This document shows positions 17,165 through 39,459 of a stretch of DNA of 64,000 nt, piece by piece (position 1 is the stretch's first letter; each line of letters begins with the position of its first letter). This stretch comes from Candidatus Nanoarchaeia archaeon (lineage in GTDB: Archaea; Nanobdellota; Nanobdellia; Tiddalikarchaeales; Tiddalikarchaeaceae). Both the position numbers and the translations under genes were made by a program. The stretch spans positions 93-64,092 of the forward strand of contig JBAZFK010000005.1 of assembly GCA_041653395.1 (NCBI GenBank), written 5' to 3'. The notes below the pieces were generated by a model. The model ran no database searches, was not told the DNA's origin, and was given only the letters and a program-made list of their open reading frames with translations.

Positions 17165-17177
17165 ATTACAATTAATT

Positions 17178-17261
17178 GCTAAGATGGCGGAGCGGTCTAA
17201 CGCGTCAGCCTTGAGAGCTGATCTCCGAAAGGGGGCGCAGGTTCAAATCCTGCTCTTAGCG
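17178..17261 (+). tRNA. tRNA-Ser (anticodon UGA), long variable arm, CCA not encoded
   Basis: Acceptor GCTAAGA/TCTTAGC, anticodon arm TCAGC-CTTGAGA-GCTGA, variable arm, T-arm GCAGG-TTCAAAT-CCTGC, discriminator G. Confidence 0.96.
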
Positions 17262-17322
17262 GTACGATAAAAGTCAATCGCTGTTTTGTGTGTTTTTAAA
17301 TTACTTTGAGAGTTAATAAAAC

Positions 17323-18480
17323 ATGAAAGACAGATGGAAACTTCACAGCTACGAAAAGGATCTTGACCGTAGAGTGAAGAACATAAAAGAGGGAAAAGTT
17401 TCCGATATATCTAACAAGAATTACCTTTTGGATTATTATGATTACCTGCTTAGCCAAGGGCTGAGCGTGCCAAGAATAGCTAAATGTTTGAGATTAGTTC
17501 AGAAAGCTGATGAATTTTTGAAAAAAGACTTAAAGACAGTTACAGAGAAAGATGTTATATCTTATTTTGGTTGGCTTGAAAGAAGCGAGTACAGCGAATG
17601 GACTAAGTCAGATTTCAAATCAGAGCTTAAGAAATTCCTAAAAAGGTTGTATGATGGTGAAGCTCCAAAATTCATAAATAACATTAAATCCACTGTGAAA
17701 AATAAGAGCAAGATGCTTCCGCAAGAGGTTATTACTGAACAGGAAGCAATAGAAATGATAAAGATTGCAGGAAGTGTAAGGAACAAAGCCTTAATCAGTG
17801 TGCTTTATGAAAGTGGGTGCAGAATCGGAGAGATACTCACTCTTAAAATGAAACATGTAGTGTTTGATGAATACGGCTGCTTACTTAATGTGAATGGAAA
17901 GACTGGAGTTAGACAGGTAAGAATTATATCTAGCACTCAATTGCTAAGCCAATGGTTCACAGACCACCCAAACCAATCACCAGAAAGCTACATCTGGAAT
18001 TCAAGGCAAAACGACTTAATTAATTATAACTCCATTGTCAAGTTTTTGAAAGACACAGCTAAAAGAGCAGGCATCACTAAAAGAGTTAACCCTCACTCAT
18101 TCAGGCACGCCAGAGCTACACACCTGGCAAATAAATTAACAGAAGCCCAGATGAAAATGTATTTTGGCTGGTCCCAAGCATCCAAAATGGCAGCAGTATA
18201 TGTTCATTTATCAGGCCGTGATGTAGACAACGCAATACTTGACGTGTACGGAATCAAGAAAAAAGAAGATGTCAAAGACACCTTTGCTCCAAAGAAATGC
18301 AGATGCGGACAACTAAACACACCAAACAATAAATACTGCTCTAAGTGCGGACAAATTCTAGACTTGAAATTACAAATGGAAGTGCAAGACAAAAAAACAG
18401 AACTAAAAGACATACTTTCAGAACTAATAAACAACCCAGAAACCCTTGAAAAACTTAAGCAAATGGTGCAGGCCAAATGA
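17323..18480 (+). CDS. Tyrosine recombinase/integrase with C-terminal zinc ribbon
   Basis: ESGCRIGE (R), GKTG (K), HSFRH (HxxR), FGW, AVYVH (Y), then CRCG...YCSKCG. Confidence 0.95.
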   Translation: MKDRWKLHSYEKDLDRRVKNIKEGKVSDISNKNYLLDYYDYLLSQGLSVPRIAKCLRLVQKADEFLKKDLKTVTEKDVISYFGWLERSEYSEWTKSDFKSELKKFLKRLYDGEAPKFINNIKSTVKNKSKMLPQEVITEQEAIEMIKIAGSVRNKALISVLYESGCRIGEILTLKMKHVVFDEYGCLLNVNGKTGVRQVRIISSTQLLSQWFTDHPNQSPESYIWNSRQNDLINYNSIVKFLKDTAKRAGITKRVNPHSFRHARATHLANKLTEAQMKMYFGWSQASKMAAVYVHLSGRDVDNAILDVYGIKKKEDVKDTFAPKKCRCGQLNTPNNKYCSKCGQILDLKLQMEVQDKKTELKDILSELINNPETLEKLKQMVQAK

Positions 18481-18664
18481 AAACAGACGCACTAACACTA
18501 AATATGATGCACCATTTGACTCTTTTTATTGCCTTTGTCTACTGGTCTAAAACTCTTGATACTTGGATGGCATTTGGAATAATAAGCATAAGTATTTTTA
18601 TTGGATATTTTTTAGATTAAATTCTTAAAATGAAAAATTCACAATCTTTTTATCTAATAAATTA

Positions 18665-19684
18665 TTGAAATTTTTTATGTTATATGAAATTATTACTGGA
18701 ATTTTATTATTAATTTTAATAGGTATTATAATTTATACATCATGTACCATTTTTAGAAATTTTAGTATATTTAAAAAAAATATTAAAAAAGAATGGAATC
18801 AATTTTTTAAAAAACATGATTTTAAGAAAACTTTTTTAAAAAATACTTTTTTAAAGAAATTTAATTTACTTAAAAAACCTCTTTTTTCAATTTTTTTAGT
18901 TACCATAATATCCATAATTTTACTTGTAATAATTTTTACTACAAAAACTTTTATTGATTTATTTATATTTTCATTTTCTTTTTTAAAAAATTCAATATAT
19001 GATTCAATGAAACTTTTTATTTTAAATTTAGGAATTTTAGATTTTTCAGAATTATTTTTAATTTCATTATATACATATATTTTTTTATCATTATTATATT
19101 TTTTAATTTTCTTTACCCTTATGATTTTATCAATATTAATTAATAAAAAAGATCTTACTTTTTCTTCTAATCTTCCAAATGCAGCTTTAATTATTATAGT
19201 TTTTGGAGTTTTTTGTATGGGAATTCAATTTTTAGATAATGAATGGGGAACTCCTCGATTAAACTTTGATAATTACTCTTTTTCAGATCCAAGTGGTTTT
19301 TTTATGGTAGGCAATAACATTACTATTAAATCTACTTTAGATGGAGCATTAATAAATGGAAAGGTTGAATATACTTTTTATAATGGTTCTAAATTAATTC
19401 ATTATTTAAATAATGAGACATTTCCAAAAGATTATACTAATTCTTCAGAGGCATCTAATGTTTTTTTTGATAAAGTATACTTTAAATCTCTAGAAAATGT
19501 AATTTCTTTAGATATTACTATAGAAACTCATTATAAAAATGAATCTTTTATTTCCAACTATTATTATCCTATAAACTTTTTAACTTTAAAAGAATATAAA
19601 GAAAGAAGATCAACATATATAACATATCTGTTAGCATTAATAGGATTATTAATTTTTACATTACCTAAATATTTAAAAAAGTAA
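18665..19684 (+). CDS. Very AT-rich multi-pass membrane protein (cargo), unknown function; ATG at 18677
   Basis: Long ORF with several hydrophobic helices; no recognisable motif. Confidence 0.55.
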   Translation: MKFFMLYEIITGILLLILIGIIIYTSCTIFRNFSIFKKNIKKEWNQFFKKHDFKKTFLKNTFLKKFNLLKKPLFSIFLVTIISIILLVIIFTTKTFIDLFIFSFSFLKNSIYDSMKLFILNLGILDFSELFLISLYTYIFLSLLYFLIFFTLMILSILINKKDLTFSSNLPNAALIIIVFGVFCMGIQFLDNEWGTPRLNFDNYSFSDPSGFFMVGNNITIKSTLDGALINGKVEYTFYNGSKLIHYLNNETFPKDYTNSSEASNVFFDKVYFKSLENVISLDITIETHYKNESFISNYYYPINFLTLKEYKERRSTYITYLLALIGLLIFTLPKYLKK

Positions 19685-19882
19685 ACACTCTTCTCTCTCT
19701 GCAAGTATTTTAAGCTCCTTCGCTCAAGCTCAGAGAGCATTAAAAAACTTGCTGCCACAGTATAACACAGTGTTTGGCACCGCTCGAGAAGAAAAGCCTT
19801 CTATTCTTTCCTTGACTGACGTGCCCAAACCCCGGATTTTTTCAACGAAAGTCTTTGATTGAAAAAATCGGAGGTTTGTAAA

Positions 19883-20119
19883 ATGAATACAAAAATGTTA
19901 GTAAGTAGGGTGTGGGCAACCACAGGGTTAAGCTTCAAGGTAAAGAAGCTAATCGACGAAAAAACGAGAAAGGTTTTAGAAGAAACCAATCCAGAAGTGA
20001 ATCAGATAGGTATGCTGGAAGATATCAGCAAGCTATTAAGCTTGGACTGGAAGGTCTCAAGGCAGCTCTGGAGAATGAGAGAAGAGCTGAAAGCTGTTAA
20101 AGAAGGTGCTCAAGAATGA
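19883..20119 (+). CDS. Small element protein, possibly a ribbon-helix-helix regulator
   Basis: GGAGG at 19870-19874 before ATG 19883; strand-helix-helix pattern TGLSFKV/KKLIDEKTRKVLEE/IGMLEDISKLL; higher GC than cargo. Confidence 0.5.
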   Translation: MNTKMLVSRVWATTGLSFKVKKLIDEKTRKVLEETNPEVNQIGMLEDISKLLSLDWKVSRQLWRMREELKAVKEGAQE

Positions 20120-20219
20120 GCACTTCTTTACTAATATTAAATTGGCTTCGCCTGTGTTATAGGCTCGCTCTTCGAGCTCGCCAAAGAATTTTTAAGTAAA
20201 TAATATTAAATAAAAATAT

Positions 20220-20840
20220 ATGCAAGATAAAAATCAATTTATTATAAAGATTATTTTTAGTATAGTTTTATTTGTTGTATTCTTAGTTTCTTGGATTTTT
20301 AATAATTTTAAGTTTATAACTGAATATATTTTTATTTTTATACTAATATTTGCACTTTATTTAATAGAGTATATAAAAGAAATTAAATATAAAGAGCTTG
20401 AGATAAAATTTGGAAAGGAAGAAATAAACTCATTATTGTCTGAAGTTAAAGAATCAAAAGATATACACATTATTACAAAAACAAAGTCTTTAAGTGGAAC
20501 ATCTAAATCAAGAATAACTTTTGGTAATGATAAATTAGATGAAATATATACTTATATAAATAAAGGAGATTATACATTATCAATTATTCAAACATCAAAA
20601 TTATTAGAGGAATTATTAATGAAAAAATTAGAAGAAAATAAGAATAGAGGTCTTGGATATTTGATAAGATTAAGTCTTGAAAAAGAATATATTAATAAAA
20701 ATGAATTTGAATTATTTTTAATATTTAGTCAATTAAGAAATTCAATTGTACATTTTAATAATGATAATAAATTTATACCTTCAGATATCACAAATATTTT
20801 ATACCCTGTTTTAAATCTGCTAAGAACAAAATTGTTATAA
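20220..20840 (+). CDS. Two-TM protein with C-terminal HEPN/DUF4145-like domain
   Basis: N-terminal TM pair; LRNSIVH fits the RxxxxH HEPN motif. Confidence 0.55.
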   Translation: MQDKNQFIIKIIFSIVLFVVFLVSWIFNNFKFITEYIFIFILIFALYLIEYIKEIKYKELEIKFGKEEINSLLSEVKESKDIHIITKTKSLSGTSKSRITFGNDKLDEIYTYINKGDYTLSIIQTSKLLEELLMKKLEENKNRGLGYLIRLSLEKEYINKNEFELFLIFSQLRNSIVHFNNDNKFIPSDITNILYPVLNLLRTKLL

Positions 20841-21503
20841 TTTAGGTAAATCTTCTTTAATAAATTTTAACATTTTATTTACATCTTCTTCAGAATATTT
20901 TTCAAAATCTCCATGTGCTGCATAATTTCCTATATCTAATTGTGCTTGAATAATTCTTTCCATAGGTAAATTGTAAATTTCATTTTCTCTTAATTTAATA
21001 TTTAATGAAGAAGCTCTTTCTTTTTCAGAATAATTAATTGATTCTCTTTCACATATTTTTTTAAGTGTTGTTTCTATAACTACTCGTAATAATACAGCTG
21101 TTGGGTCCTTAAAATGTTTTTTGAGTAATTCTTCTGCTTGGTCACTAATTGATTCAAAAAAATCACCTGCAATTAAATTTTCAATTTTATATAAAAATCC
21201 ATTATTAATTTCATCTAAAGCACTTTCTAATAATCCTTGTAGTCTTGAGATTGTTACAGAATAATTAGAAATATAGTCTCCATAAAGACTTTGTAATCTA
21301 TCAATAGTTGGTGCAGAATCTTTAAAGGATTTATAATATGAGGATTTTTGAGAAAAAGTTCTATCTAAAATGTTTAAACAACTATGTCCCCACTTGTAAA
21401 AATCTTTAACTTCTTCATTTTTTAAAGGAACTTTATAATCTCTAAATTCTTTACATTTTTGTATTAATTCATCAAATCTTTTTATAATACTATTTCTTAT
21501 CAT
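20835..21503 (-). CDS. DUF4145 (HEPN-like) domain protein
   Basis: DF...I.DQAEELL....D..AVLLR.V.E..LKK.C ... GNYAAHG. Confidence 0.7.
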   Translation of the reverse strand: MIRNSIIKRFDELIQKCKEFRDYKVPLKNEEVKDFYKWGHSCLNILDRTFSQKSSYYKSFKDSAPTIDRLQSLYGDYISNYSVTISRLQGLLESALDEINNGFLYKIENLIAGDFFESISDQAEELLKKHFKDPTAVLLRVVIETTLKKICERESINYSEKERASSLNIKLRENEIYNLPMERIIQAQLDIGNYAAHGDFEKYSEEDVNKMLKFIKEDLPKL

Positions 21504-21528
21504 AATTAAAAATAATTGATACTACTAT

Positions 21529-22587
21529 TTATTTCTTTCTTCTTCTAAATAAGAAGAATATTAGGTATGCTACTGTTGAGAGCCAGTATCCTATTTCAAA
21601 TTGTTTTTGGCCATAAAAAACATATCTTAATGTCATCATTAAATACGCAATGTTAACTATGTTGTTTGAGCTGATTAGGTTTATTCTATTAGTGCTTGGC
21701 TTGATGTGTTCTACTAGCTTATTTTCTTCATTTAATTCTTTTAATGCTAAGTTTTGTTCGCAGACTTTCTTTATCTGCTCCGGAGTATTATTTGTGCTGT
21801 TTTGAACTATTCTAGAAACCTCTGTTATGTTGTCACATTTGCCTTCTAAGAGTTTCATAACTAATTGATTGGCTTCTTGTTTAGTTAATGATTTGAGCTT
21901 GATTGTGTGGTCAAATTCTATGTAAGCTTTGTTGTTAATTCCTGCACCTATGAATTGGTAATTATTTCTCATTAAATCCTTAATTATTTTCTTATCATTA
22001 ACAGTGGCAGATTCTAGTGAATCTAATAGGACAATTATGTGATTGTTGTCTTGGCGTAATTTATTCATTAATTCCTGCTTATTAGCAGACTTGCCAAACA
22101 TTATTCCTTTGGCTTTGCATATATTTTCTAAGCAATTCTTTATAGGCTTAATCTCTGCATAAACACTACTTTTCAAATATTTATCATTTAACCTTTTAAG
22201 CAGTGCAGTTTTTCCATAACCACTCTGACCTAATAAAATCACATTTTTCTTTCTTTCAGCATTGTAAAGAATTTCATCAATTATTTCTTTGTTTTCTATG
22301 AATAAATCTTTAGAATCAAAGATTAATTCTTGCTTTAATTCTGTGTTTATTGATTCAAATTTTCCTAACACTGTTAAAGCTAAAAGTTTGCCTTTAGAAG
22401 TTAAGAAATATTTTCCTTCAATCTTTTCTGCAATTCCATTGATTAAATAAGAATTAATTATTCTGTAAAAAGTCTTTTTATTTACATTTTTTATTTCATT
22501 AAAATATTTGGAATTATCAAATAATTCTTCAAGTATTAACTGATGATTCTTTGTTTTAGAGCATAACTGCACAAGCTTAAGCCACAT
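21529..22587 (-). CDS. P-loop AAA ATPase with N-terminal winged helix and C-terminal TM helices
   Basis: Walker A GQSGYGKT, Walker B-like VLLDSLE; N-terminal KTFYR...GIAEK....YFLT.KG wHTH; hydrophobic C-terminus. Confidence 0.8.
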   Translation of the reverse strand: MWLKLVQLCSKTKNHQLILEELFDNSKYFNEIKNVNKKTFYRIINSYLINGIAEKIEGKYFLTSKGKLLALTVLGKFESINTELKQELIFDSKDLFIENKEIIDEILYNAERKKNVILLGQSGYGKTALLKRLNDKYLKSSVYAEIKPIKNCLENICKAKGIMFGKSANKQELMNKLRQDNNHIIVLLDSLESATVNDKKIIKDLMRNNYQFIGAGINNKAYIEFDHTIKLKSLTKQEANQLVMKLLEGKCDNITEVSRIVQNSTNNTPEQIKKVCEQNLALKELNEENKLVEHIKPSTNRINLISSNNIVNIAYLMMTLRYVFYGQKQFEIGYWLSTVAYLIFFLFRRRKK

Positions 22588-22669
22588 GAAAGATATTAGA
22601 ATTAAACTATTATAAAAAGAATAAAATTATTCTTTTATTAGAATATATTATACACTAGTTAGTGTATTC

Positions 22670-23119
22670 TCAAGGAATGAGACTGAATTCATAGTAAACA
22701 ACAACGCATTCTAATACTAGGAATATGAAGCATATTATTACATCTTTAGCGGAACCAGTCTCTACTGGACCATCAAAAATCACGAATCTTGACTTGTTTG
22801 GATAGAATAACTGCACTCCTGAAGGTGTAAATAAGTCCAAAACTATATGAGCAGTGTATCCAATGAAGCAAAATAAGAAATTGGTCTCTAAAAATGATAG
22901 TAATCCTAGCAGTAGAGACCAATAAATACTATGAAAAAGCCCTCTATGCCCAAATTTCTTGTACAAATACTCACTAATCCATGGAAAAAACATACCTAAT
23001 AATGTGTTAGGGTTATCAATGTCAGGAATAATGCTAAACAAAACAAGCAACATATTAGGATTTAAACCTAACAATAAAGAAACAAGTATAGCAAAGTTAA
23101 TGTGAGTTAACCAAATCAT
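22670..23119 (-). CDS. Membrane metal-dependent hydrolase (YbcI/YdjM/DUF457-like)
   Basis: TH, PDID.P, HRG.FHS, GY.AH...D..T..GV.L..P motifs. Confidence 0.85.
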   Translation of the reverse strand: MIWLTHINFAILVSLLLGLNPNMLLVLFSIIPDIDNPNTLLGMFFPWISEYLYKKFGHRGLFHSIYWSLLLGLLSFLETNFLFCFIGYTAHIVLDLFTPSGVQLFYPNKSRFVIFDGPVETGSAKDVIICFIFLVLECVVVYYEFSLIP

Positions 23120-23155
23120 AAAATAAAAAGACTTAAAGTTATATATAAATACAAT

Positions 23156-25105
23156 TTATTTTTTTCTTTTTGGTTTTTCAATTTTTTTTCCTTCAATTAA
23201 ATTATAATAATATAAATCAATTTTTTCAGAAAAATCATTAATTAAGTTTTGTTTACCAATAAAATCTTTAGCTTTGATTAAATTTCCTTCTAATAAAAAA
23301 TAACCAAATAAATCAAGTTCATCAAAAGCTATCAATTCATTAGTAATATTAATTTTTAACCTTTGTTCAATATAATCTATAAAGTCTTGATAATTTTCAA
23401 TTAAATCCCTAAAAATCATTAAATCATAAATATTTAAAGTTAAAAAATCTTTACTCTTATCAAAATAATCTTTATTAATGGATTTGATCTGATTTGAACA
23501 AGAAGTTAATGAAAAAAAGCTATCTGCATGGATAGATAATTTGAAAATTTTATTAAAATTTTCTTTTTTTAATCTAAATTTTTCTTTTCTTTTCTTTTTA
23601 TTATTTGAATCATAAAAAATAACTTCAGAATAGTTATTAATATAATCAAATGTTGAGTTAACCTGTTCAAATGCTTGATATATTGATTCATCAAAATCTT
23701 CTTTTGTTTGTTGTATTATATCAGAAACATCTGAAAATAATCTTCGTTTTTTTCCTTTAACTTCTACAATAAATAAAATATTATTTTTTATAAATAATAA
23801 ATCATTTTCATTTCCAAAAATATCATAATTATTTTGATAAAACTTGTCAGGGTTCAATATTTTTTCAAAACATTCTTTTACCTTATTTTCATAAAATTGG
23901 CCTTTTAACTTGAAATACAAACTTTTATCTGAAACTAAATTTTCAAATATTAATTTTAAATTTCTTAATAAATTTTGAGGTAAAAAACAATAATAATCAT
24001 TATTATATTTAATTAAAGGATTTGTTATAACTAAATCATAATCAAGTATTTTTTTCCATTTTTTATTATCTCCAAAATTTAAACTTATAAAATTTAAATA
24101 TTCTTTTTTAATGTTTTGGTTCAGATTTATTTTAAAATTTTCTTCATAATTTAATAATTCATAAGTTGCTTTTTTAATAAGTTCTGAATTATTTTTTTTA
24201 AACTCATCAATAGAATCTTTTTTAATTCGTTTTTTAGATTCTTCTCTAATAAGTTCAAGTGTTTTTGAATAAGATGAATACATAGTTTTTATATTATTAC
24301 TAATTTGGCTTATAATTTCATTTATTGTTTTTAAAAAAAATTCACTATTAAAAGTTGAATTAAAACAAGATTTAGTGTAATCCAATAGCTGAGTATTTAT
24401 TTCAGTATAATGAACAGCTTGTGCTTCACCTCTTACTATTAAATATGTTGATAAAATAATATGAAAACATAATTTTATTTCTTTAGATTCTTTTCCAGTT
24501 ATAAATATAGTATAATAAATTAAATCAAATTTAAATTTTTCAAGTAAGTTATATAAGTCATCAATTTTATTATTTTCTGCTTTTAAATTAAATTCAGATA
24601 TATTGTGTTTTAATATAAGTTTTTGTACTATTTCATAAATTATAGTTAATTCATCTTTATTTTTTCCGAGTTCATCACTAGTTTTTGTATTATATTTAAA
24701 AAATAAATCTGCTAATACTTTAAATGGATTTAATGTTAACAACATTTTTTCAATTTTATCTAAAGTATCATATAACTTCTGTTCATTTTCATTAGATATT
24801 TTTATTAATTCTTTTTCATCTAAATCACCCAATGATTTTTTAGATTCGTTTTTTAACATAATTTGTCTACCTTTTCTTGATATTTTAAAAGGACCTAATT
24901 GTTCTTCTTCATCAAAAATAATAGGCAAACTAATTTTATTATTTTTAATATCTAATTCTTTTTTTATTATTGATTTTGTAATTCTTAATTCAATTATTTT
25001 TTTATCAAGACATGTTTTTTTTTCTAATAAATTAACTAATTCTTCTTTTTCAATTTCATGATTTTTTTCTAAAATAATTTTTATATCATCTATTATTTTA
25101 ACCAC
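23156..25105 (-). CDS. Large AT-rich cargo protein with C-terminal PD-(D/E)xK/NERD-like nuclease domain
   Basis: G..YE....E, END.L......IVEVKG, Q catalytic-like pattern near the C-terminus. Confidence 0.55.
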   Translation of the reverse strand: MVKIIDDIKIILEKNHEIEKEELVNLLEKKTCLDKKIIELRITKSIIKKELDIKNNKISLPIIFDEEEQLGPFKISRKGRQIMLKNESKKSLGDLDEKELIKISNENEQKLYDTLDKIEKMLLTLNPFKVLADLFFKYNTKTSDELGKNKDELTIIYEIVQKLILKHNISEFNLKAENNKIDDLYNLLEKFKFDLIYYTIFITGKESKEIKLCFHIILSTYLIVRGEAQAVHYTEINTQLLDYTKSCFNSTFNSEFFLKTINEIISQISNNIKTMYSSYSKTLELIREESKKRIKKDSIDEFKKNNSELIKKATYELLNYEENFKINLNQNIKKEYLNFISLNFGDNKKWKKILDYDLVITNPLIKYNNDYYCFLPQNLLRNLKLIFENLVSDKSLYFKLKGQFYENKVKECFEKILNPDKFYQNNYDIFGNENDLLFIKNNILFIVEVKGKKRRLFSDVSDIIQQTKEDFDESIYQAFEQVNSTFDYINNYSEVIFYDSNNKKKRKEKFRLKKENFNKIFKLSIHADSFFSLTSCSNQIKSINKDYFDKSKDFLTLNIYDLMIFRDLIENYQDFIDYIEQRLKINITNELIAFDELDLFGYFLLEGNLIKAKDFIGKQNLINDFSEKIDLYYYNLIEGKKIEKPKRKK

Positions 25106-25138
25106 AGTTAATAAACATAAATAATAATTAAAAAATCT

Positions 25139-25444
25139 TTAGTATTTGAGCATCATTTCTCTTTTCATGTGTCTTAATGCTTTGAAAAGTAACTTCTCGT
25201 TTAGGTTTAGCTTGCTAGCTATTGTATTCATAGTTAGCTCTCCGCCGTAGTTCTTGACTACATAATAAGCTAAAGCTCCTATTGTTAGGCCTAGTTCTCT
25301 GCCTTGTGTAAGGTTGTTCTGCAAGGCTTTGAAGTATAACCTTTTTACTTCGCTTACTTGGTACTCTTTTAGCTCCAATTTATCGCACATTATATCTATA
25401 TCTGGCTCATTTAATCCGAATCTTCTCTCATTGTAGTTTGTCAT
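25139..25444 (-). CDS. Single TFB (TFIIB) cyclin-repeat protein; probable start ATG 25444
   Basis: IDIMCDKLEL....V.EVKRLY.KA...NL.QGR......GA..Y.V.K..G...T...IA parallels the TFB cyclin repeat. Confidence 0.7.
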   Translation of the reverse strand: MTNYNERRFGLNEPDIDIMCDKLELKEYQVSEVKRLYFKALQNNLTQGRELGLTIGALAYYVVKNYGGELTMNTIASKLNLNEKLLFKALRHMKREMMLKY

Positions 25445-25446
25445 AT

Positions 25447-26286: not shown

Positions 26287-26327
26287 AAAATGTAAATAAC
26301 CTTAAAGAAATAATTTAATTAAAAAAT

Positions 26328-30536: not shown

Positions 30537-30669
30537 AAGATTTAATGAAAATTTGCTAATTAAAAATATATTTATCTACTACTTTAAAAGTGATAGTTTT
30601 ATGGATAAAGAGCTTGAGTAATTTATTCTAATAATAAAGTTAAAATATATGAAAGAAATATTATAATCT

Positions 30670-31332: not shown

Positions 31333-31336
31333 AAAA

Positions 31337-31783
31337 TTAATTATCTCTATCCCATATAAGTAGATCATAAACAGTTATAATAAATAAAGGAGTAATGAAA
31401 ATTGCTAGTGAAAAAATAATTACTTCTAAACCTTCAAGAGGTATTAACTTATGCAATGTACCTATAGTAAATAATGCTATTAATAACCATCCAAATTTAA
31501 AATTATTTATTTTTGTTTTTTTTATTTTTTCAAAATTTGAATGGATTACATAAAATTCTTTATTAAATTCAGTAATTGATTTCCAATTAATTTTTTGAGA
31601 TTTATGATTAAAACATTCAAATTGAGATTTTTCTTTTTCTTTTATTTTATTAGAAACTATTCTAAATAAAGTATAATATTGAAAAAAGAAAGCAGAAGCT
31701 ATGAATCCTAAAATTGCTAAATATTTTATATCCAACATACTTAAAAAAATATCCATTTCAGTCATTTTACCACTTATTTTCAT
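31337..31783 (-). CDS. Hypothetical three-TM cargo protein
   Basis: Hydrophobic segments at both ends; start uncertain. Confidence 0.45.
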   Translation of the reverse strand: MKISGKMTEMDIFLSMLDIKYLAILGFIASAFFFQYYTLFRIVSNKIKEKEKSQFECFNHKSQKINWKSITEFNKEFYVIHSNFEKIKKTKINNFKFGWLLIALFTIGTLHKLIPLEGLEVIIFSLAIFITPLFIITVYDLLIWDRDN

Positions 31784-32057
31784 TATTCTCCGAATTTAAT
31801 GTAGATCCTGATATTATTCCTATTAATCCTCCAACAATTGCTCCACCTGATCCTGCTATAGCTGCTCCCATTAAAGCCCCAGTTACTCCTGCAATAAATG
31901 CTTTTTCTTGTGCAGATGAAAAAACAGTTCTATTAAGTTTCATTTCTTTTCCACAACAGTTACATTTCACTGGATCTTTTTTGGTAGATATTGGCCCTTC
32001 AACTTCGCATCCTTTATTATTACATAATTCATTAGTACAAAGATAATAATTTTTCAT
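31767..32057 (-). CDS. Small Cys-rich zinc-ribbon plus glycine-zipper protein
   Basis: CTNELC...CNCC followed by GxxGAxxGAxxxGxxGAxxGGxxG. Confidence 0.6.
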   Translation of the reverse strand: MKNYYLCTNELCNNKGCEVEGPISTKKDPVKCNCCGKEMKLNRTVFSSAQEKAFIAGVTGALMGAAIAGSGGAIVGGLIGIISGSTLNSENNENKW

Positions 32058-32125
32058 AAAATTAATTATCCTAAGCTAATTTAAAATATTATGTTTTAAT
32101 ATTACTTTAAAACTATTATTTATTT

Positions 32126-32254
32126 ATGGATAAAGAACTTGAGCAATTTTTTCAACCCTGGGAGTTAAAACTCTTAGAGATAATTGAAGAAGCTAAAAAA
32201 GAAAAAATTGATAAAACTAATAAAAAGTTAAATAATGATATTATAACACATTAA
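32126..32254 (+). CDS. Short 42 aa ORF (MDKELEQFFQPWELK...), with a truncated 5' copy at 30601
   Basis: Read manually; first 24 nt duplicated at 30601-30624 where codon 7 is TAA. Confidence 0.35.
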   Translation: MDKELEQFFQPWELKLLEIIEEAKKEKIDKTNKKLNNDIITH

Positions 32255-32304
32255 AATTTAATAAAGGATGTTTTTATATATACTTTAAATTATTACTTTA
32301 TTAT

Positions 32305-33030
32305 ATGAGTTCAATAAAAGATCTAAAAGAAAATATTCTTTTAAGAGAAAATTTACTTAAAGTTCAAAAAGAAGATTATGAGAAAACTAAATTTTTAGGG
32401 TATGAAGTAGGTACTTTTGAATTATATAATAATTATATTGAATCTTTGAGTATTGCATTCAAAAAACTTGTATCTGATAAAAATTTAAAAATATCATTTA
32501 ATGATTTGGCAATAAATAAAAAATGGTTAGATATTATTGGTCAAATGCAAGATATATTAACTGCTGCTTATCCTATGATAAATGATGAAACTTCAGATCC
32601 TTTATTAATGGGTTATTTATATGTTAAGTTTTATCAATCAGGATTTGGTCATGCAATTAGTTTTTTTAGAAAATTGGCTATTATTATAAATAATGTATAT
32701 AAATTTAATTCTAAAAAAATTAATTTTTTATCAGATAAAAATTGTATAGATATTTTAATTAAATATGATTTAACTTACAAATTTATTTTGTCTAATTTTG
32801 ATAATGAAATACGAAATTGTATTGCGCATGAAGATTATATTATAAATAAAGATAACACAATAAAATTTATGACTTCTGAAGGAAAAATAATTAAAAAAAC
32901 TTTTGTAGAAATAGGACTTATGGATTCATATTTTTCATTTTTGAATAATGCTTTAATATTTGTAGTAACAAATTATGAACTTAAACTTCTTAAAAGACAT
33001 CTTAATGATAAGGTATCTAAAAATAAATGA
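32305..33030 (+). CDS. HEPN-domain cargo protein
   Basis: D.EIRNCIAH.DY RxxxxH motif. Confidence 0.6.
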   Translation: MSSIKDLKENILLRENLLKVQKEDYEKTKFLGYEVGTFELYNNYIESLSIAFKKLVSDKNLKISFNDLAINKKWLDIIGQMQDILTAAYPMINDETSDPLLMGYLYVKFYQSGFGHAISFFRKLAIIINNVYKFNSKKINFLSDKNCIDILIKYDLTYKFILSNFDNEIRNCIAHEDYIINKDNTIKFMTSEGKIIKKTFVEIGLMDSYFSFLNNALIFVVTNYELKLLKRHLNDKVSKNK

Positions 33031-33156
33031 TTTTTTTATATATAGAAAATTCAGGAAACATTTATATAAAATCGCTGACTTGTTTGATCTTTGTAAATAA
33101 AAAAACATGCTAAAAATTGGGGCGATTGACCTTTTGTGTCTCGCCTGCTCTCAGCG
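33031..33156 (+). repeat. Right-end/att repeat copy A (TATA-like box, ATCGC motif, left arm, tRNA-derived core)
   Basis: Aligns with 34324-34450 and 39315-39441; TTTAT box to TGCTC core spacing is 85 nt in both A and C. Confidence 0.85.
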
Positions 33157-33290
33157 AAAAAATCATATATACATTTATTAATATTAAAGTAGTATTTAAA
33201 GAGTTTTTAAATGAGACAAAACCAAAATACTTTATTGGTGCAAATTATAAAAGAGAAAAGTTTTAAAGTATAATTACGTCTTCTTTAATT

Positions 33291-33473
33291 ATGGATTTAA
33301 GAGAAAATTTTCTTACTATTTATGCAGATTTACCTTTAGGATTAAGAAAAGAGGTGATTTTAATATTAGATAAGGAACCAATAAGTTGGAATGTAGCTTA
33401 TATTGAAATTTTTAACAAAACTGAAAAAAGTAAAAAAATTCTTAAAGAATTAAAGGAAATGAATATAATATGA
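33291..33473 (+). CDS. Small helical protein, gene 1 of a three-gene protease module
   Basis: 60 aa; overlaps the next gene (ATGA). Confidence 0.7.
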   Translation: MDLRENFLTIYADLPLGLRKEVILILDKEPISWNVAYIEIFNKTEKSKKILKELKEMNII

Positions 33474-33685
33474 GTGAAACTATTTCTGAAAAAGAAAAGC
33501 AGCTTGTTATTTTTAGATTAAGCAAAATGCCGGTAAACAAAAAAATATCTATAGGTTCTGAAGGTCAATTTGATAAAGATGAATTAATAGATCATGTTAA
33601 AAATGAAGATTCAGTGGGTAAAAAAATAGTTGAAATTCAAATGGCTTTCTTAAGAGCAATGAAATCAGGTAAATTATATGCCTAA
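33470..33685 (+). CDS. Small protein, gene 2 of the module; probable distant paralogue of gene 1
   Basis: 71 aa; shared helix-P-hairpin-helix-(G/S)KKI pattern. Confidence 0.7.
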   Translation: MSETISEKEKQLVIFRLSKMPVNKKISIGSEGQFDKDELIDHVKNEDSVGKKIVEIQMAFLRAMKSGKLYA

Positions 33686-34316
33686 ATATTTAATTACAAG
33701 ACCAGAACATGACGATACTACTTTTTTGCTTTCTAGTTTTATGAATCAAACAATATCTTTTGCTAAAAATAGGGGCTTTGAAGTTTTTGATTTGCATAGA
33801 GAAAAAGCTACCAAATTTAATTTTGAAGGATTAATTAAAAAAAATCCTGAAATCATTGTTTTAAATGGGCATGGGGCTATAAATATGGTAACAGGTCATA
33901 AAAATAAACCTCTCTTAATAGCTGGAATTAATGATTATACTCTTAAATCAAAGACAATTTATGCTATTTCTTGTCAATCTGGAGTTGGATTGGGACCTAG
34001 CAGTATTAAAGAAGGTGCTTTAAGTTATACAGGTTATGTTAATGATTTTATTCTATATTATACTCCAAAATTACTTAGTAAACCTTTAAATGATGATACT
34101 TTAAAATTTTTCCTCGAACCTTCTATAATTCTTATTGAATCTATATTAAAAGGTAACTCAATAAACGATTCTCACATTAAATGTAAAGAAAAAATGATAA
34201 ATAACTTAAAGAAAATGATGAGTAGTGGTGAAGAAGATTATAATGATATGGCTCAATATTTATGGTGGGATATACAAAATTTTAGGACATTTACACAAAC
34301 TGAAATTTTAGATTAA
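33678..34316 (+). CDS. Caspase-fold (clan CD, CHAT/gingipain-like) cysteine protease
   Basis: IIVLNGHG (His65) and IYAISCQSG (Cys99) after hydrophobic strands; no signal peptide. Confidence 0.75.
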   Translation: MPKYLITRPEHDDTTFLLSSFMNQTISFAKNRGFEVFDLHREKATKFNFEGLIKKNPEIIVLNGHGAINMVTGHKNKPLLIAGINDYTLKSKTIYAISCQSGVGLGPSSIKEGALSYTGYVNDFILYYTPKLLSKPLNDDTLKFFLEPSIILIESILKGNSINDSHIKCKEKMINNLKKMMSSGEEDYNDMAQYLWWDIQNFRTFTQTEILD

Positions 34317-34323
34317 CACATTA

Positions 34324-34450
34324 TTTTTTTATACATAGAAAAATCACAAAACATTTATTATAAAATCTCTGTTTATTTGATTTTTGTAAATAAAAAAATG
34401 ACCTAAAAAATAGGGTGTTATCAGTTTCTATGATTGCTAAGTTAGAGCAA
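34324..34450 (+). repeat. Right-end/att repeat copy B (degenerate core)
   Basis: TTTTTTATACATAGAAAAATC...ACATTTATTATAAAATCTCTG...TTTGATTTTTGTAAATAAAAAAA aligns to copy A; core-like TGCTAAGTTAG at 34435. Confidence 0.7.
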
Positions 34451-34496
34451 TTTATTTTCCTTAATATTTATAAATATAGAATATATCAAATTGCTG

Positions 34497-35207
34497 ATGT
34501 TAAAAGTTTTAGTAATGGCAAGTGGAGGAGCTACTAGTGGTAGATACTTATTTGATAATAATCCTGGAACTTATGAAATTGCTGGAGTAGTTTTAAGTAA
34601 GAATTCAGCTAGTGGTATTGAACATTTTGAAAATAGGGGTTTTTTGAAAGGTAAGAATTTGTTTGTCTGTGATGTTTATGATTTTTATAAAAGTAAAGGC
34701 AAAAATTCTTTAAAAGATTCACAGACTAGAATTGAGTATGAAGCTAGTATTGAAGATGCAATTAAGGATGTTAGTTTTGATGTTATTGCTCTTAGTGGAT
34801 ATATGCTTAGAATGTTCACTATTCATAATAAGTATAATACTTTAAATGTTCATCCTGCAGATTTACGAATCATTAATGATAAATGTGAAAGAAAGTATAC
34901 TGGAGATAATGCTGTTACTTGTGCAATAAGAGCAGGAGAGAAAGAGACACGTTCTAGTATTCACTTAGTTACTGATGAAGTTGATGGAGGTCCATTAATT
35001 GTAGTATCAGACAGTGTTAAAGTTCCAAGCTGGAATAATAGTAATCTTGAAACTATTGCTAATAATGTTCAGGAAGAAATGAAAATTAAATGCGATAATC
35101 CTGCATATATGTGGACAATACAAAACTTGGCAAATGAAAACTTAAAAATAGAAAATAAAGTTATTTATTATAAAAATAAAATATTACAATCTCCAATCAT
35201 CTTATAA
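34497..35207 (+). CDS. purN: Phosphoribosylglycinamide formyltransferase-like protein
   Basis: VLVMASG, LSGYM, NVHPADL (NxH), SSIHLVTDEVDGGP (catalytic Asp). Confidence 0.8.
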   Translation: MLKVLVMASGGATSGRYLFDNNPGTYEIAGVVLSKNSASGIEHFENRGFLKGKNLFVCDVYDFYKSKGKNSLKDSQTRIEYEASIEDAIKDVSFDVIALSGYMLRMFTIHNKYNTLNVHPADLRIINDKCERKYTGDNAVTCAIRAGEKETRSSIHLVTDEVDGGPLIVVSDSVKVPSWNNSNLETIANNVQEEMKIKCDNPAYMWTIQNLANENLKIENKVIYYKNKILQSPIIL

Positions 35208-35315
35208 AATTAAAATTTTTTTTTAAACAATAAATATAAATTTTTCCTTCTAAATTAAAATACAACTTATTAGTGATTACAAATATTATTTAAATACTAT
35301 AGGATAAAAATATAT

Positions 35316-38300
35316 ATGCCTCTGGATGAAATAGCAATACGTGCCATCAAAAGAATAGAAATAGAACGATTAATTCCGGACACTAGAGCGCAAAAACTTA
35401 AGACAGAATTAAATCTTAAAGGATACTCAGTCACTGACTTAAAATGGCTTGATGTTTACACAATAAATGAGGCACTAACAAATCAGGAATCTGACTTAAT
35501 TGCGAAAAATCTTGCAATAGCATGCAATTATGAAAATGGAATCAAGATACACTCAGCTCACATTTATGAACCAGCAAGTATTCAGGGATTTGATCAAGCA
35601 ATAGAAACCGGCTTTTTGCCAGGAGTGACAGATAATATAGGAAAAACAGCAAAAATAGTAATAGAAGATACGCTGGAAAGAAAATTAAATGATGTTCAAG
35701 GAGTATATACTTCAAGATTACTTTTAATAAAAGGAATAACAGGTGAGCAAGCAAGAGAAATACCTTCATTATTAATTAATAAATTAATAGAAAGATCACA
35801 AATCAAGAACAATCATGAATATCTTAATGATCATGGAATGGGTGCAACAATACCTAAAGTAAATATAGATCATGAACCAAGAATTTTGGATGTTGATTTA
35901 GAATTGCAAGATGATGAATTAATAAAATTAGGAAAAGAAGGAATATATGATCCATTAACAAAAATGAGAAGAGGGCCTTTAGCGCTAGATATTGAATCAT
36001 TAAAATCAATAAAGGAATACTATAACAAAATAAGCAAGAAACCAACAGATATTGAATTAGAATCAATAGCTCAAACTTGGAGTGAGCATTGCAAGCACAG
36101 AATATTCAGCGGTTCTCTTGATGACATAACTGAAGGAATATTCAATAAACACATTAAAGGAGCAACTAATGCCATAAGGGCTGAACTAGGAGAGAACGAC
36201 TTCTGCACATCAGTATTCAGTGATAATTCAGGCGCAATAAAATTCAATGATATATTTAGTGTATGCTTCAAGAGCGAGACGCATAACAGCCCTTCAGCAC
36301 TAGACCCTTTTGGGGGAGCAATAACTGGAATAGTTGGTGTTAATAGAGATACCCTAGGATTTGGATTAGGTGCGCTTCCAGTAAATAATTCATATTACTT
36401 CATGTTCGGTGAACTCAATGATATGAATCGTTACTTTAAAAATAAGGAATTAACAGATGAGATACTCAGTTCAGAATCAATAATGAATGGAGTAATAGCC
36501 GGAGTTAATGCCGGAGGAAACCAGTCAGGAATACCAACAAATGTTGGAGGAATGTATATGCACTCATCTTACAGGGGAAAACCCTTAGTTTATGTAGGAA
36601 CTTCAGGAATAATACCAACAAATAAGATAGAAAAAAAAGCAAATCCTGGAGATTTAATAGTTGTGATTGGCGGACGTGTAGGCGCTGATGGAGTTCATGG
36701 TGCGACATTCTCAAGTGAGGCATTAACAAGCGGAAGTCCAGCAACAGCAGTGCAGATAGGGGATGCAATAACTCAGAAGAAACTAAGTGATTCTTTACTG
36801 AAAGAAGCAAGGGATCTAGAATTTTATACAAGCATAACAGACAATGGAGCTGGAGGATTATCATGCAGTGTTGCTGAAATGGCGCAGGAAAGCGGAGGAT
36901 TCACAGTAAATCTTAATAAAGTCCCGCTAAAATACGCAGGATTACAGCCATGGGAGATATGGATATCAGAATCGCAAGAGAGAATGACATTATCCGTGCC
37001 AAAAAATAAGATAGATAACTTCATGGAATTAATGAAGAAACATGATGTTGAAACAAGCATAATAGGAGAATTTACTAATTCAGGAAAAGCGCAAGTAAAT
37101 TACAATAATCAATTAATAATTAATCTTGACATGGACTTCCTTCATAATGGAGCTCCAAAGAAAATAATGAAAAGCGAGGAATTCCATAATACATTTGAAG
37201 AGCCTAATTTTGCAATGCCTGAACTAAACTCAACGCTTGATGAAATGCTATCAAGATATAATATCTGTAGCAAGGAGTTCATAAGCACCCAATATGATCA
37301 TGAAGTTCAGGGAGGCTCAGTAATCAAGCCATTAATTGGCAAAGGCAGGCTGCAATCAAAAGCAGGGGTTTACAAACCCTTATTAGATTCAAATAAAGGA
37401 GTAGTTGAAGCAAATGGGTTATGCCCAACATACAGCCAAATAGACACTTATGATATGGCTATGTGCTCAATAGATACAGCAATAAGGAACGCGTTAAGTG
37501 TTGGAGGCTCACTCAAACATATGGCCTTATTAGATAACTTCTGCTGGAATTCAAGTGAAGATCCAAAAATGCTTTATTTATTAAAAAGAGCAACAGAAGC
37601 ATGTTATGATTACGCAACGAAACTAAAAACTCCATTCATATCAGGAAAAGACAGCATGTTCAATGATTTCAAAGGCTATGACGCGAAAGGCAAACCAGTA
37701 AAAATATCAGTACTACCTACACTGAAAATACAAGCATGCGGAGTTATAGATGATGTTAATAAGTGCATAACTCATGAAGCAAAATTTGAAAATGACCTTG
37801 TCTATGTTATAGGCGAAACATTTAATGAATTAGGAGGAAGCGAGTATTTTAGGATGAAAGGAAATCATGTTGGAAATAATGTGCCAAAAGTTAGAATAGA
37901 ACAGGCAATAAAGACTTATAATTCATTAGAGCAAGCAATAAATAATGAATTATTAGTGTCATGCAATCCAGTAAATATTGGAGGGCTTGGTGTAGCATTA
38001 TCAGAAGCATCATTAGGAGGAAAGATAGGAATGAATATTGATATTAATGGAATAAACAGCAACCTACGCGATGATTTCTTATTATTCAGCGAGTCACAAT
38101 CAAGATTTGTTGTTACAGTAAACCCTGAACTTAAAGAAGAATTCGAAAATACAATGCAAGGTATTTACTGTCAGCAGATAGGCACTGTAGAAGGGGATTC
38201 ATTAATTATTAACAATGGAAGTAAAAACTTAATAAATATGAAAGTGACTGAACAATTAAACGCTTATAAGAAAACTTTTGCCAACAAAATGAGCGTTGCT

Positions 38301-38342
38301 GGCTGGGATAAAGAATCTTACATGCAAGGTGATTGGTTATGA
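35316..38342 (+). CDS. purL: FGAM synthase PurL (~1000 aa form with N-terminal PurS-like region)
   Basis: AQTWSEHCKH, SDNSG, K.ETHNSPSALDPFGGA.TG, DGVHGAT, TDNGAGGLS, SESQERM, QYDHEVQG, ISGKDS. Confidence 0.96.
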   Translation: MPLDEIAIRAIKRIEIERLIPDTRAQKLKTELNLKGYSVTDLKWLDVYTINEALTNQESDLIAKNLAIACNYENGIKIHSAHIYEPASIQGFDQAIETGFLPGVTDNIGKTAKIVIEDTLERKLNDVQGVYTSRLLLIKGITGEQAREIPSLLINKLIERSQIKNNHEYLNDHGMGATIPKVNIDHEPRILDVDLELQDDELIKLGKEGIYDPLTKMRRGPLALDIESLKSIKEYYNKISKKPTDIELESIAQTWSEHCKHRIFSGSLDDITEGIFNKHIKGATNAIRAELGENDFCTSVFSDNSGAIKFNDIFSVCFKSETHNSPSALDPFGGAITGIVGVNRDTLGFGLGALPVNNSYYFMFGELNDMNRYFKNKELTDEILSSESIMNGVIAGVNAGGNQSGIPTNVGGMYMHSSYRGKPLVYVGTSGIIPTNKIEKKANPGDLIVVIGGRVGADGVHGATFSSEALTSGSPATAVQIGDAITQKKLSDSLLKEARDLEFYTSITDNGAGGLSCSVAEMAQESGGFTVNLNKVPLKYAGLQPWEIWISESQERMTLSVPKNKIDNFMELMKKHDVETSIIGEFTNSGKAQVNYNNQLIINLDMDFLHNGAPKKIMKSEEFHNTFEEPNFAMPELNSTLDEMLSRYNICSKEFISTQYDHEVQGGSVIKPLIGKGRLQSKAGVYKPLLDSNKGVVEANGLCPTYSQIDTYDMAMCSIDTAIRNALSVGGSLKHMALLDNFCWNSSEDPKMLYLLKRATEACYDYATKLKTPFISGKDSMFNDFKGYDAKGKPVKISVLPTLKIQACGVIDDVNKCITHEAKFENDLVYVIGETFNELGGSEYFRMKGNHVGNNVPKVRIEQAIKTYNSLEQAINNELLVSCNPVNIGGLGVALSEASLGGKIGMNIDINGINSNLRDDFLLFSESQSRFVVTVNPELKEEFENTMQGIYCQQIGTVEGDSLIINNGSKNLINMKVTEQLNAYKKTFANKMSVAGWDKESYMQGDWL

Positions 38343-39190
38343 ATAATTACATACATTTAGAAAAATGGGTAAATCATCAAGAAGGACCTAACGCATTAGT
38401 GCTTTATGGTGAAGGAATAAATTGCGACAGGGAAACAGCTTATGCATTAAACAAAGCAGGGGCAAACCCTAATGTAATGCATATTAATGAATTAACAAAA
38501 AAATCTGAAGTATTAAATAATTACCAGATACTAGTTGTGCCTGGAGGATTCTCATATGGTGATGATTTAGGCTCAGGACTAGTCTTTGGCAAAAATCTTC
38601 TAAAATTAGGAAATAAATTAAAAGACTTCATTGAGGAGGGTAAAGCAGTAATAGGAATATGCAACGGCAATCAAATATTAACTGTTGCTGGATTAATACC
38701 TGCATTGCAAGATATTATAGGTATACAGGAAGTATTCATGAGCAATAACACTAACGCTCGCTACACTTGTTTATGGAATCACTTAAAAATAGAAAACCAA
38801 ACACCTTATTTAAAGAATGTAAAAGATTTAATTTTACCCTGTGCTCATGGTGAAGGATTATACACAATGGCTCAAGAAACCTTGGATACATTAATCAAGA
38901 ACAAACAAGTAGTTCTTCGATTCACTAAACCTGATGGAATGCCAGCAAAGGGGCAATTCCCTTTCAGCCCGAATGGTTCTATGTATGATATTGCTGCAAT
39001 AACTAACACGAAAGGAAATGTCTTTGGAATAATGCCTCACCCAGAGAGATTTATAAACATGACACAACATCCTGAGTACGCGTTCATAAATGAAAAAAGC
39101 AAAAGAACAAAACAGCCACTTCCAAAAGAAGGGTCTGGGCTGCAGATATTCAAAAATATTGTGGATTACGCGAAGAATCTTAGCTTATAA
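38339..39190 (+). CDS. purQ: FGAM synthase glutaminase subunit PurQ (ATG 38339 overlaps the purL stop)
   Basis: G.NCDRET, PGGFSYGDDLG, GICNG.Q, AHGEG, PNGS, MPHPER. Confidence 0.96.
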   Translation: MNNYIHLEKWVNHQEGPNALVLYGEGINCDRETAYALNKAGANPNVMHINELTKKSEVLNNYQILVVPGGFSYGDDLGSGLVFGKNLLKLGNKLKDFIEEGKAVIGICNGNQILTVAGLIPALQDIIGIQEVFMSNNTNARYTCLWNHLKIENQTPYLKNVKDLILPCAHGEGLYTMAQETLDTLIKNKQVVLRFTKPDGMPAKGQFPFSPNGSMYDIAAITNTKGNVFGIMPHPERFINMTQHPEYAFINEKSKRTKQPLPKEGSGLQIFKNIVDYAKNLSL

Positions 39191-39314
39191 TACAATGATT
39201 ATTTATTCCAAAGATTACACCAAAGCCAAAAGGAGTTCTGAAGATTAAATAGCTGAGTACAATAATAATAATTGCAGGAATCCTGTTAATATTATATTAA
39301 AATAAATAAGTGAA

Positions 39315-39459
39315 TTTTTTATATATAGAAAATTCAGGAAATATTTATAAAAAATCGCTGTTTTGTTTGATTTAGCATATATAAAACTCACGCAAAAAGT
39401 GATAGCGAGTGACCTTTAGTTAGACGCGTGCTCTTAGCGGTCTAATAATAGTCACTCGC
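39315..39459 (+). repeat. Right-end/att repeat copy C: complete attP-like site with both inverted arms
   Basis: 13/13 match TGCTCTTAGCGGT (39429-39441 = 17251-17263), flanked by GCGAGTGAC (39405-39413) and GTCACTCGC (39451-39459); AATCGCTGTTTTGT at 39353-39366 = 17276-17289. Confidence 0.85.

Follow-up and report, generated by a model that had tools for sequence, protein, structure and literature searches.

What placed two groups of genes that contain no recombinase behind the integrase gene at a tRNA gene of a nanoarchaeal genome, and can those groups still move as units? The question is raised by a 64,000-nt stretch of DNA, here called the window, from Candidatus Nanoarchaeia archaeon (contig JBAZFK010000005.1, positions 93 to 64,092 of the forward strand; assembly GCA_041653395.1), in which a tRNA-Ser(UGA) gene is followed by an integrase gene and by three related repeats, A, B and C. 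Three small open reading frames (ORFs), together called the trio, and a set of purine-synthesis (pur) genes lie among the repeats. A first-pass annotation, made from the bare sequence, had read positions 17249-39459 as an integron-like platform with one integrase, three right-end attachment (att) sites and two att-terminated cassettes, on a background of tandem accretion at the tRNA gene. Site-specific tandem accretion at tRNA-Ser is supported by our analysis. We consider it probable that the locus arose by tandem accretion of a single family of integrative elements at a tRNA-Ser hot spot, followed by decay. At the locus we observe repeated integration of one family, junctions between elements, and loss of integrase genes by truncation and deletion. 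This is the familiar way in which genomic islands build up; no new mechanism is needed and the integron analogy is unsupported.

The insert and its empty site

The tRNA-Ser(UGA) gene (17177-17262, + strand; called by ARAGORN, Rfam tRNA score of 62 bits) is the only tRNA gene in the window and, as the integration target, provides one half of the chromosomal site, attB. The same site is empty in a more distant relative. On a 618 kb contig of that genome (L018), the genes for Cbf5, a methyltransferase, a 776-amino-acid (aa) protein and tRNA-Ser(tga) align to window positions 13051-17261, the homology ends exactly at 17261, the end of the tRNA, and 192 nt past the tRNA the alignment resumes at window positions 41195-41977. 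The inserted DNA therefore extends from 17262 to ~41195, a length of 23.9 kb. The island had been taken to end at 39459; the insert continues 1.7 kb further to the right than the span 17249-39459.

A sister strain (L019, JBAZGS010000001.1) has flanks that are 88-92% identical to those of the window and, between them, a different array of 16.3 kb. The array opens with an attL that has an arm of the GTCACTCGC type, followed by an integrase gene cut to 237 aa and by other genes, including one for a reverse transcriptase. Next comes a junction of left arm, core and right arm (P-core-P'; L019 8236-8394) that is 87% identical to repeat C, and directly after it a 5' fragment of an integrase gene (L019 8352-8736, 76% identical to window 17251-17636). 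A fusion of a P-arm piece with part of the 382-aa gene described below comes later and is followed by more cargo, and the array ends with a part running from DUF5320 to DUF134 with 63-aa and 67-aa ORFs, the counterpart of window positions 40424-41194. Relatives that stably carry the pur genes and trio at this spot, which the first-pass annotation had named as evidence against its own proposal, were not found: L018 and L019 lack both groups at the tRNA-Ser locus. The reverse transcriptase gene of L019 (RVT_1, 471 aa; L019 6820-8235) is the last gene of the first element before the junction.

Element E1 and its integrase

The left end of the insert is well defined. The 3' end of the tRNA forms the core CCTGCTCTTAGCG (17249-17261, + strand) and is followed by a right (P') arm (17262-17322, + strand) that can be aligned to the attL arms of three related loci (L002, L003 and L019). 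This arm contains one half of an inverted repeat, GTCAATCGC (17273-17281), the motif ATCGCTGTTTTGT (17276-17289) and, upstream of the integrase gene, a TTTTTAAAT box. The intact tyrosine integrase gene starts 60 nt past the tRNA (17323-18480, + strand); its product matches PF00589 (3e-22) over positions 2-169 of 172 and has at its C terminus a zinc ribbon, which gives a weak profile match. The residues R167, K193, H258, R261 and Y293 are invariant across 12 family members in a check of catalytic residues; the integrase is presumably active.

Thousands of relatives of this integrase exist, and those with a named source come mostly from DPANN archaea. It groups with DPANN integrases annotated as ‘XerA/XerD-like’ that adjoin tRNAs, and its closest relatives all lie directly downstream of a tRNA gene: a 78% identical integrase beside tRNA-Ser(aga) (L002), a 77% identical one beside tRNA-Arg(gcg) (L003) and 59% identical ones beside tRNA-Ser(tga) (L004-L007). 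For the element beside a 59% identical integrase (L005/L010) no attR was found within 21 kb.

The first element of the insert, E1, spans 17263-33156 (15.9 kb, GC content 0.25). Its body (18481-33020, GC 0.245) was compared with Pfam and, by tblastn, with four related elements (L002, L010, L019 and L023), to which about seven of its genes are common. These core genes include a 78-aa ORF (19883-20119), a STAND-like ATPase (21529-22587, - strand), YdjM (22670-23119, - strand), a TFB-like pair (25139-25683, - strand) and a 382-aa putative replication protein (28749-29897); NERD-like, HNH and membrane-protein genes are further cargo. Because the neighbourhoods of related integrases share genes with it, E1 belongs, judged by gene content, to a nanoarchaeal family of plasmid-like integrative elements that target tRNA genes.

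Some details of E1 deserve mention. The 78-aa ORF, a conserved small gene that is widespread in the element family and has no match to a described protein family, lies in a GC-richer stretch (19690-20200) that is 87% identical at the DNA level to element L002 and shows the highest summed depth across all metagenome runs. The Cys-rich, HNH-ended 647-aa gene of E1 holds an internal direct repeat of 120 nt (27317-27688; copies 70% identical, 252 nt apart), which reflects a duplicated ectodomain module. At the tRNA itself, the block of identity ends at the acceptor stem, because the following base, the discriminator, differs between loci; it is supplied by the DNA beyond the crossover and is A in L018 (the empty site), G in the window (from the E1 arm) and T in L019. 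Integration may therefore change the discriminator base of tRNA-Ser.

The repeats as attachment sites

The first-pass annotation had noted further copies of the tRNA 3' end, one at 33144-33156 (12/13) and one at 39429-39441 (13/13), within a repeat of ~125 nt, and the sequence confirms this. A search of the window with the 12-mer TGCTCTTAGCGG, allowing at most one mismatch, returned three sites (the tRNA, 39429 and 34787) where 0.14 were expected. The match at 34787, TGCTCTTAGTGG, lies inside the purN-like ORF, and we treat it as a chance occurrence and not as an att core.

Repeat A (33021-33156, + strand) consists of the P arm of E1 and a core, CCTGCTCTCAGCG (33144-33156), and is the attR of this element. 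Its left inverted-repeat arm, GCGATTGAC (33122-33130), is the exact reverse complement of GTCAATCGC (17273-17281) at the other end of E1. The flank after the core (33157-33212, + strand) is kept beside a P arm and core on an unrelated metagenome contig (L025), of which positions 1498-1677 align to window positions 33034-33212 with 76% identity, including 56 nt past the core of A. The flank is probably element-derived, a left-arm remnant of an older element. Repeat C (39304-39470, + strand) is more complete, with a core, TGCTCTTAGCGGT (39429-39441), identical to the tRNA end at 13/13 positions, inverted-repeat arms on both sides (GCGAGTGAC, 39405-39413, and GTCACTCGC, 39451-39459), an inner repeat TTAGAC/GTCTAA and a right arm at 39442-39470. 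The third copy, reported earlier as degenerate, is indeed present: repeat B (34314-34450, + strand) is 87% identical to A over 77 nt and is a degenerate P arm, of which the left ~85 nt, two thirds, are recognisable and in which no core or inverted-repeat arm was recognised. Over the first 68 nt of the repeat, A and C show 91% identity, and the window contains no further copies of the ~125-nt repeat.

Several features indicate how these repeats are built. The arm pair of C (GCGAGTGAC/GTCACTCGC) carries a compensated change relative to the E1 pair (GCGATTGAC/GTCAATCGC), and the arms are 37 nt apart both in C and in the E1 attP that is obtained by rejoining the left part of A to the right part of attL. 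C folds as an imperfect palindrome of ~55 nt (z = -5.2), as does the rejoined E1 site (z = -3.1); A alone is not palindromic (z = -0.96). A 14-mer, ATCGCTGTTTTGTx, flanks the core on the left as well as on the right: one copy lies at 17276-17289 and another at 39353-39366, and A has a copy with two changes. As the arms and the 14-mer stand on both sides of the core, the repeat has the character of an attP left (P) arm.

The attP of the family would accordingly begin with a conserved P arm of ~110 nt, with an AT-rich box and the ATCGCTGTTTTGT motif, and a 9-nt arm GCGAnTGAC; a 13-nt core equal to the tRNA 3' end would occupy its centre, followed by the inverted arm GTCAnTCGC and a short P' arm that leads into the integrase gene. 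We infer this layout from the copies described here, and regard the 9-nt arms and the ATCGCTGTTTTGT motifs as putative protein-binding sites. The three repeats are thus related att sites of the element family to which the integrase belongs, as had been proposed; the description of all three as right ends does not hold, B being coreless and C two-armed. Equal spacings of 85 nt (AT-rich box to core) and 24 nt (left arm to core) had also been reported for A and C. The two copies are co-linear and ungapped, and the figures themselves depend on cores that were placed 2 nt apart in register. We also considered the repeat as a small-RNA gene with a terminal stem and rejected this, since the att arms account for its pairing partners and it has no match in Rfam.

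The DNA to the right of C

The core and right arm of C, GGTCTAATAATAGTCACTCGCCCTTTCTCGTG, match the attL arms of L002 and L019, and behind them lies an integrase-less remnant of an L002-like element (39471-40423). It comprises the 3' end of a STAND-like ATPase gene (39651-39751, - strand; 86% identical to 21505-21607 and 81% to L002), which over 25 aa is 96% identical to the ATPase of E1, a conserved intergenic piece (39777-39854; 87% identical to L002 and matching 20140-20182) and an 88-aa ORF (39944-40210). No integrase follows the right arm of C in the window. Since this arm is an attL arm with fragments of family genes behind it, C joins two stacked elements, the second of which is almost wholly deleted. 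On the evidence of its arms and surroundings, C is a whole P-core-P' junction between two elements and more than a right end.

Beyond this remnant lies the oldest part of the insert (40424-41194), which is 90-93% identical to the sister strain L019 and is missing from the empty-site relative L018. It holds a fused DUF5320/DUF134 ORF of 82 aa (40414-40662) and a 67-aa ORF (40981-41184). In L019 a 301-aa polysaccharide deacetylase gene stands between a DUF5320-like gene and a DUF134-like gene, which implies a deletion of 1.25 kb in the window at 40529/40530.

The P arm in other genomes

The GTDB genome set and JGI metagenome contigs were searched with a P-arm pattern, which was found in three contigs of metagenome-assembled genomes (MAGs) of Nanoarchaeia from the former and in four contigs from the latter. 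On one contig (L021) the core that follows the P arm is CCCGGCAGGGGCA, which is the tRNA-Arg(gcg) 3' end. The tRNA-Arg gene itself lies 870 nt upstream of the P arm, together with a P' arm, an integrase gene truncated after codon 22 and one NYN-like gene. Read from its sequence, L021 is an integrase-free mini-unit of attL, 22 integrase codons, a single cargo gene and attR, formed by internal deletion. A second contig (L023) has an arm 90% identical to that of C joined to a tRNA-Ser(aga) core; a tRNA-Asp(gtc) gene (L023 1994-2071) also lies inside this related element, ~80 nt upstream of the P arm. Two more, L024 and the metagenome contig L025, combine the P arm with further cores, and L026 repeats the junction of L019. 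Neither the P arm nor a relative of the integrase was found in IMG/VR.

Because the P arm is found at element ends joined to different tRNA cores in other MAGs, it is, as far as these contigs indicate, borne by the elements and reused with different cores, and is not a host promoter. The first-pass annotation had held that a genome-wide promoter repeat would undo its proposal, and in the contigs searched we find no such distribution: the repeat travels with elements. A further copy is suggested by the assembly graph of groundwater run X1, which forks inside A; the second path has a depth of 21.5 vs 21.9 and contains GCGGTTGAC and another core. A fourth P arm is thus indicated, either in the same genome or in a co-abundant one.

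Genes between A and C

The module sizes given earlier (15.9, 1.3 and 5 kb) stand, and the absence of a recombinase from the two smaller modules is confirmed. The trio consists of overlapping ORFs of 60, 71 and 212 aa (33291-34316, + strand; GC 0.25). It had been described as a group of proteases, for which we find no support: the ORFs have no match in Pfam, NCBIfam or PHROGs, and tblastn to the related elements L002, L010, L019 and L023 found no homologues.

Between B and C, the calls of purN-like (34491-35207), purL (35316-38342) and purQ (38333-39190) genes, all on the + strand, hold against Pfam and NCBIfam, with different degrees of confidence. PurQ scores above the TIGR01737 cut-off and PurL falls just under its own (517 bits vs 526); the divergent purN-like formyltransferase is far under the PurN cut-off (62 bits vs 150), and its product may be another kind of formyltransferase. 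PurL is 1008 aa long, with ~230 extra N-terminal residues and the FGAR-AT linker domain, and PurQ is encoded separately, an architecture intermediate between small and large PurL. The best non-self match of PurQ among 5.8 billion proteins is 51% identical. Named matches come mostly from bacteria of the Candidate Phyla Radiation (CPR), namely Gracilibacteria, Peregrinibacteria and Roizmanbacteria, with one DPANN match at 45%; there is no close PurQ from the sister species, whose MAG is in NCBI. The tblastn comparison with L002, L010, L019 and L023 found no pur genes either. Lying inside the insert, the pur genes are, to judge from these comparisons, strain-specific acquisitions.

Assembly and population data

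The populations were examined through assembler unitigs, from which rare forms are dropped. The window sequence is present at 100% identity in run X1 at a depth of ~22; two further runs, one from groundwater and one from a landfill (X2), contain it at low depth. In X1, unitigs of 3497 nt (31300-33112) and 6295 nt (33086-39380) have a depth of ~22, as does E1, and coverage stays level from E1 through the modules to the flanks. With one unitig spanning 33086-39380 at even depth, the array is not an assembly artefact. Past the end of the tRNA the graph forks into several continuations in X1 and X4, and the locus is therefore polymorphic in the community.

Excision products, which the first-pass annotation had predicted, did not appear: no circle or deletion junctions were seen in the unitigs, and no joints that skip forward or go back among A, B and C were found at >=96% identity in X1 or X3 unitigs, a weak test because rare forms are dropped. 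Neither module was found in any other array or element. One joint that goes back 4985 nt, from 39361 to 34377, was considered as a circle of the pur module and set aside; its five foreign letters and the shortness of one side (31 nt) are in keeping with a fourth, distinct copy of the P arm, which is also in the X1 graph. A short JGI contig (L027, 1-1349) follows L019 exactly until halfway through the P arm; from there it is 99.3% identical to window positions 39313-40546. It represents either a recombinant strain with another element before C or an assembly chimera. At 1.3 kb, and as a possible chimera of strains, it was not used as evidence of module exchange inside the P arm.

A model for the build-up of the locus

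The 3' end of tRNA-Ser(UGA) is an integration hot spot that one family of plasmid-like elements has used repeatedly; each integration would regenerate the tRNA, and the far end of the incoming DNA would keep the P arm with a core. The order of arrival can be proposed from the layout. E1 would be the newest arrival, still intact and with ends that match each other, because it lies next to the tRNA, its arms are matched and its integrase is intact. The DNA from 33157 to ~41195 would be an older insert, from which integrase genes were lost by deletion and of which P arms (A/B/C), the junction C, gene fragments and cargo, that is, the three small ORFs and the purN-like, purL and purQ genes, survived. 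By analogy with bacterial islands, the integrase-free modules are best read as remnants like cis-mobilizable elements (CIMEs), and the trio and pur genes would be cargo of older, now-decayed elements.

Such a reading agrees with the arrangement of the sites. As in an array of CIMEs, several att copies lie in direct orientation and C, with both arms, has the form of a P-core-P' junction. A unit stripped of integration genes with both att sites kept is plainly seen in a relative (L021); in the window itself, cores bound the segment from A to C, B is coreless and no P' arm follows A or B. The marks of a tRNA-associated island are present as well, namely the tyrosine recombinase residues, an intact tRNA with a direct repeat of its 3' end and an empty site in a relative. 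The locus departs from an integron on both counts examined. Cassette sites of one attC-like kind are missing, the sites being element P arms on tRNA cores, with A unpalindromic and B coreless, and the same cassettes do not recur in different arrays, since none of the related loci examined contains the trio or the pur genes. The reading as integron-like, att-terminated cassettes is likewise unsupported, given that C is an element junction whose homologue in L019 precedes an integrase fragment and that L021 shows an integrase-free unit formed by internal deletion; the loss of the core from B removes the separate boundary between trio and pur units. Three observations speak against the model of accretion and decay. 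No att core can be recognised where the rightmost 0.8 kb of the insert ends; the pur module has a host-like GC content of 0.33-0.35 vs 0.25 for E1; and no P' arm or integrase fragment follows A or B, so that, for want of an internal remnant there, the decayed-element origin of the trio and pur genes is argued from analogy with L019 and L021.

Two explanations would do away with mobile elements altogether, and both are very improbable. If the repeat were a host promoter, or a small-RNA gene that ends like a tRNA by chance, the modules would be ordinary host operons, and it is true that every copy stands upstream of a plus-strand gene group and has TATA-like AT-rich boxes. The empty locus in L018 already contradicts this, however, and the downstream genes have closer AT-rich boxes of their own; to this may be added the restriction of the repeat to element ends with different tRNA cores and the lack of an Rfam match. 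Scarcely more credible is a mis-assembly in which co-occurring strains were joined at shared repeats. Unitigs do break or branch at A and C, several strains co-occur, and in L027 an L019-like sequence gives way, within the P arm, to a window-like one. Yet the 6295-nt unitig runs unbroken from A to C, all parts have a depth of ~19-25 in X1, the same sequence comes at 100% identity from another type of site (the landfill of X2), and L027 itself confirms C through 40546 at 99.3%.

A third possibility, which we regard as unlikely though clearly less so than these two, is that the integrase-free segments are functional cis-mobilizable units and that the array works as a platform for gene capture and export, which is the part of the first-pass proposal worth keeping. 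The E1 integrase would then recombine attL with C, or A with C, and E1 would leave and reintegrate together with the trio and pur genes. The tRNA, A and C still have cores in direct orientation, E1 supplies an intact integrase from this family, recombination of attL with C would rebuild a complete P-core-P' site, and the likely fourth P arm has the same depth in X1; cis-mobilization of such tandems has also been shown in bacteria (PMC5704250). Against this stand the coreless B, the difference between the arms of E1 (GCGATTGAC type) and of C (GCGAGTGAC type), the lack of skipping or returning joints in the unitigs, subject to the loss of rare forms noted above, and the failure to see either module elsewhere or anything related in IMG/VR. 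A bolder reading, likewise unlikely in our estimation, is that the conserved palindromic att module, made of P arm, 9-nt arms and an exchangeable tRNA core, defines a pool of integrase-less units that are moved in cis or trans by a few intact integrases of the family, such as that of E1. If so, DPANN archaea, with their reduced genomes, could acquire metabolic genes such as purL and purQ from this pool in a site-specific manner.

Comparison with known systems

Tandem accretion followed by decay to integrase-less remnants of the CIME kind is an established route (PMC5704250), and the islands related to ICESt1 and ICESt3 in Streptococcus thermophilus described there are close counterparts of the present array. 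They share with it repeated site-specific integration at the 3' end of one gene, older att-bearing units without an integrase, internal att junctions and an intact element beside remnants; they differ in that the array described here lies in a DPANN archaeon, has no conjugation genes and includes the coreless B. Tandem islands at tRNA genes are catalogued in Islander (PMC4383910), where, as here, an integrase lies beside a regenerated tRNA gene and the far end is marked by a displaced piece of the tRNA 3' end, and tandem arrays occur. Unlike our locus, in which one of at least three members has an integrase, Islander counts tandems only if every member has its own, and the identity block here is short (13 nt) and ends before the discriminator base.

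Tandem integration and integrase loss have also been reported for archaeal elements (PMC8371274). The integrated plasmids and viruses with non-split integrases reviewed there resemble our locus in these respects and in modular exchange between stacked elements; the review contains no occurrence of DPANN or Nanoarchaeota, and the present family differs in an integrase with a C-terminal zinc ribbon and in a P arm of ~110 nt that is reused with several tRNA cores. The likeness to integrons consists of a resident tyrosine recombinase, followed by gene units in the same direction that end in related sites, and of the imperfect palindrome of the complete site. In contrast to integrons, attP arms with a tRNA core are found here instead of attC, the same type of junction precedes an integrase gene in L019, and the units are multi-gene remnants with one coreless boundary, none of which was seen in a second array.

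The empty site and the sister strain together document a tRNA hot spot that drives change in gene content at the level of strains in a DPANN archaeon, and ~24 kb, over a third of the window, is stacked mobile DNA. The att architecture is legible enough for systematic searches, with its reused P arm, matched 9-nt arms and palindrome of ~55 nt. The pur cargo, which has no close relatives, bears on the uptake of purine genes by organisms usually thought to lack purine synthesis. The DPANN host, the unusually legible architecture and the purine-synthesis cargo give the locus a moderate interest.

Host DNA beyond the insert

The first host gene to the right of the insert encodes a 241-aa protein (41203-41928, - strand), with homologues of 60% identity in L018 and 88% in L019. 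In L014 and L018 a stretch of ~130 nt with an ORF of 41-43 aa separates this gene from the tRNA side; the window lacks it (41184-41203). Further to the right, a Cys-rich 241-aa gene (44040-44765) is absent from related strains, as seen in runs X1, X2 and X3 and at locus L014; in all four, 19 other letters take the place of window positions 44098-44839.

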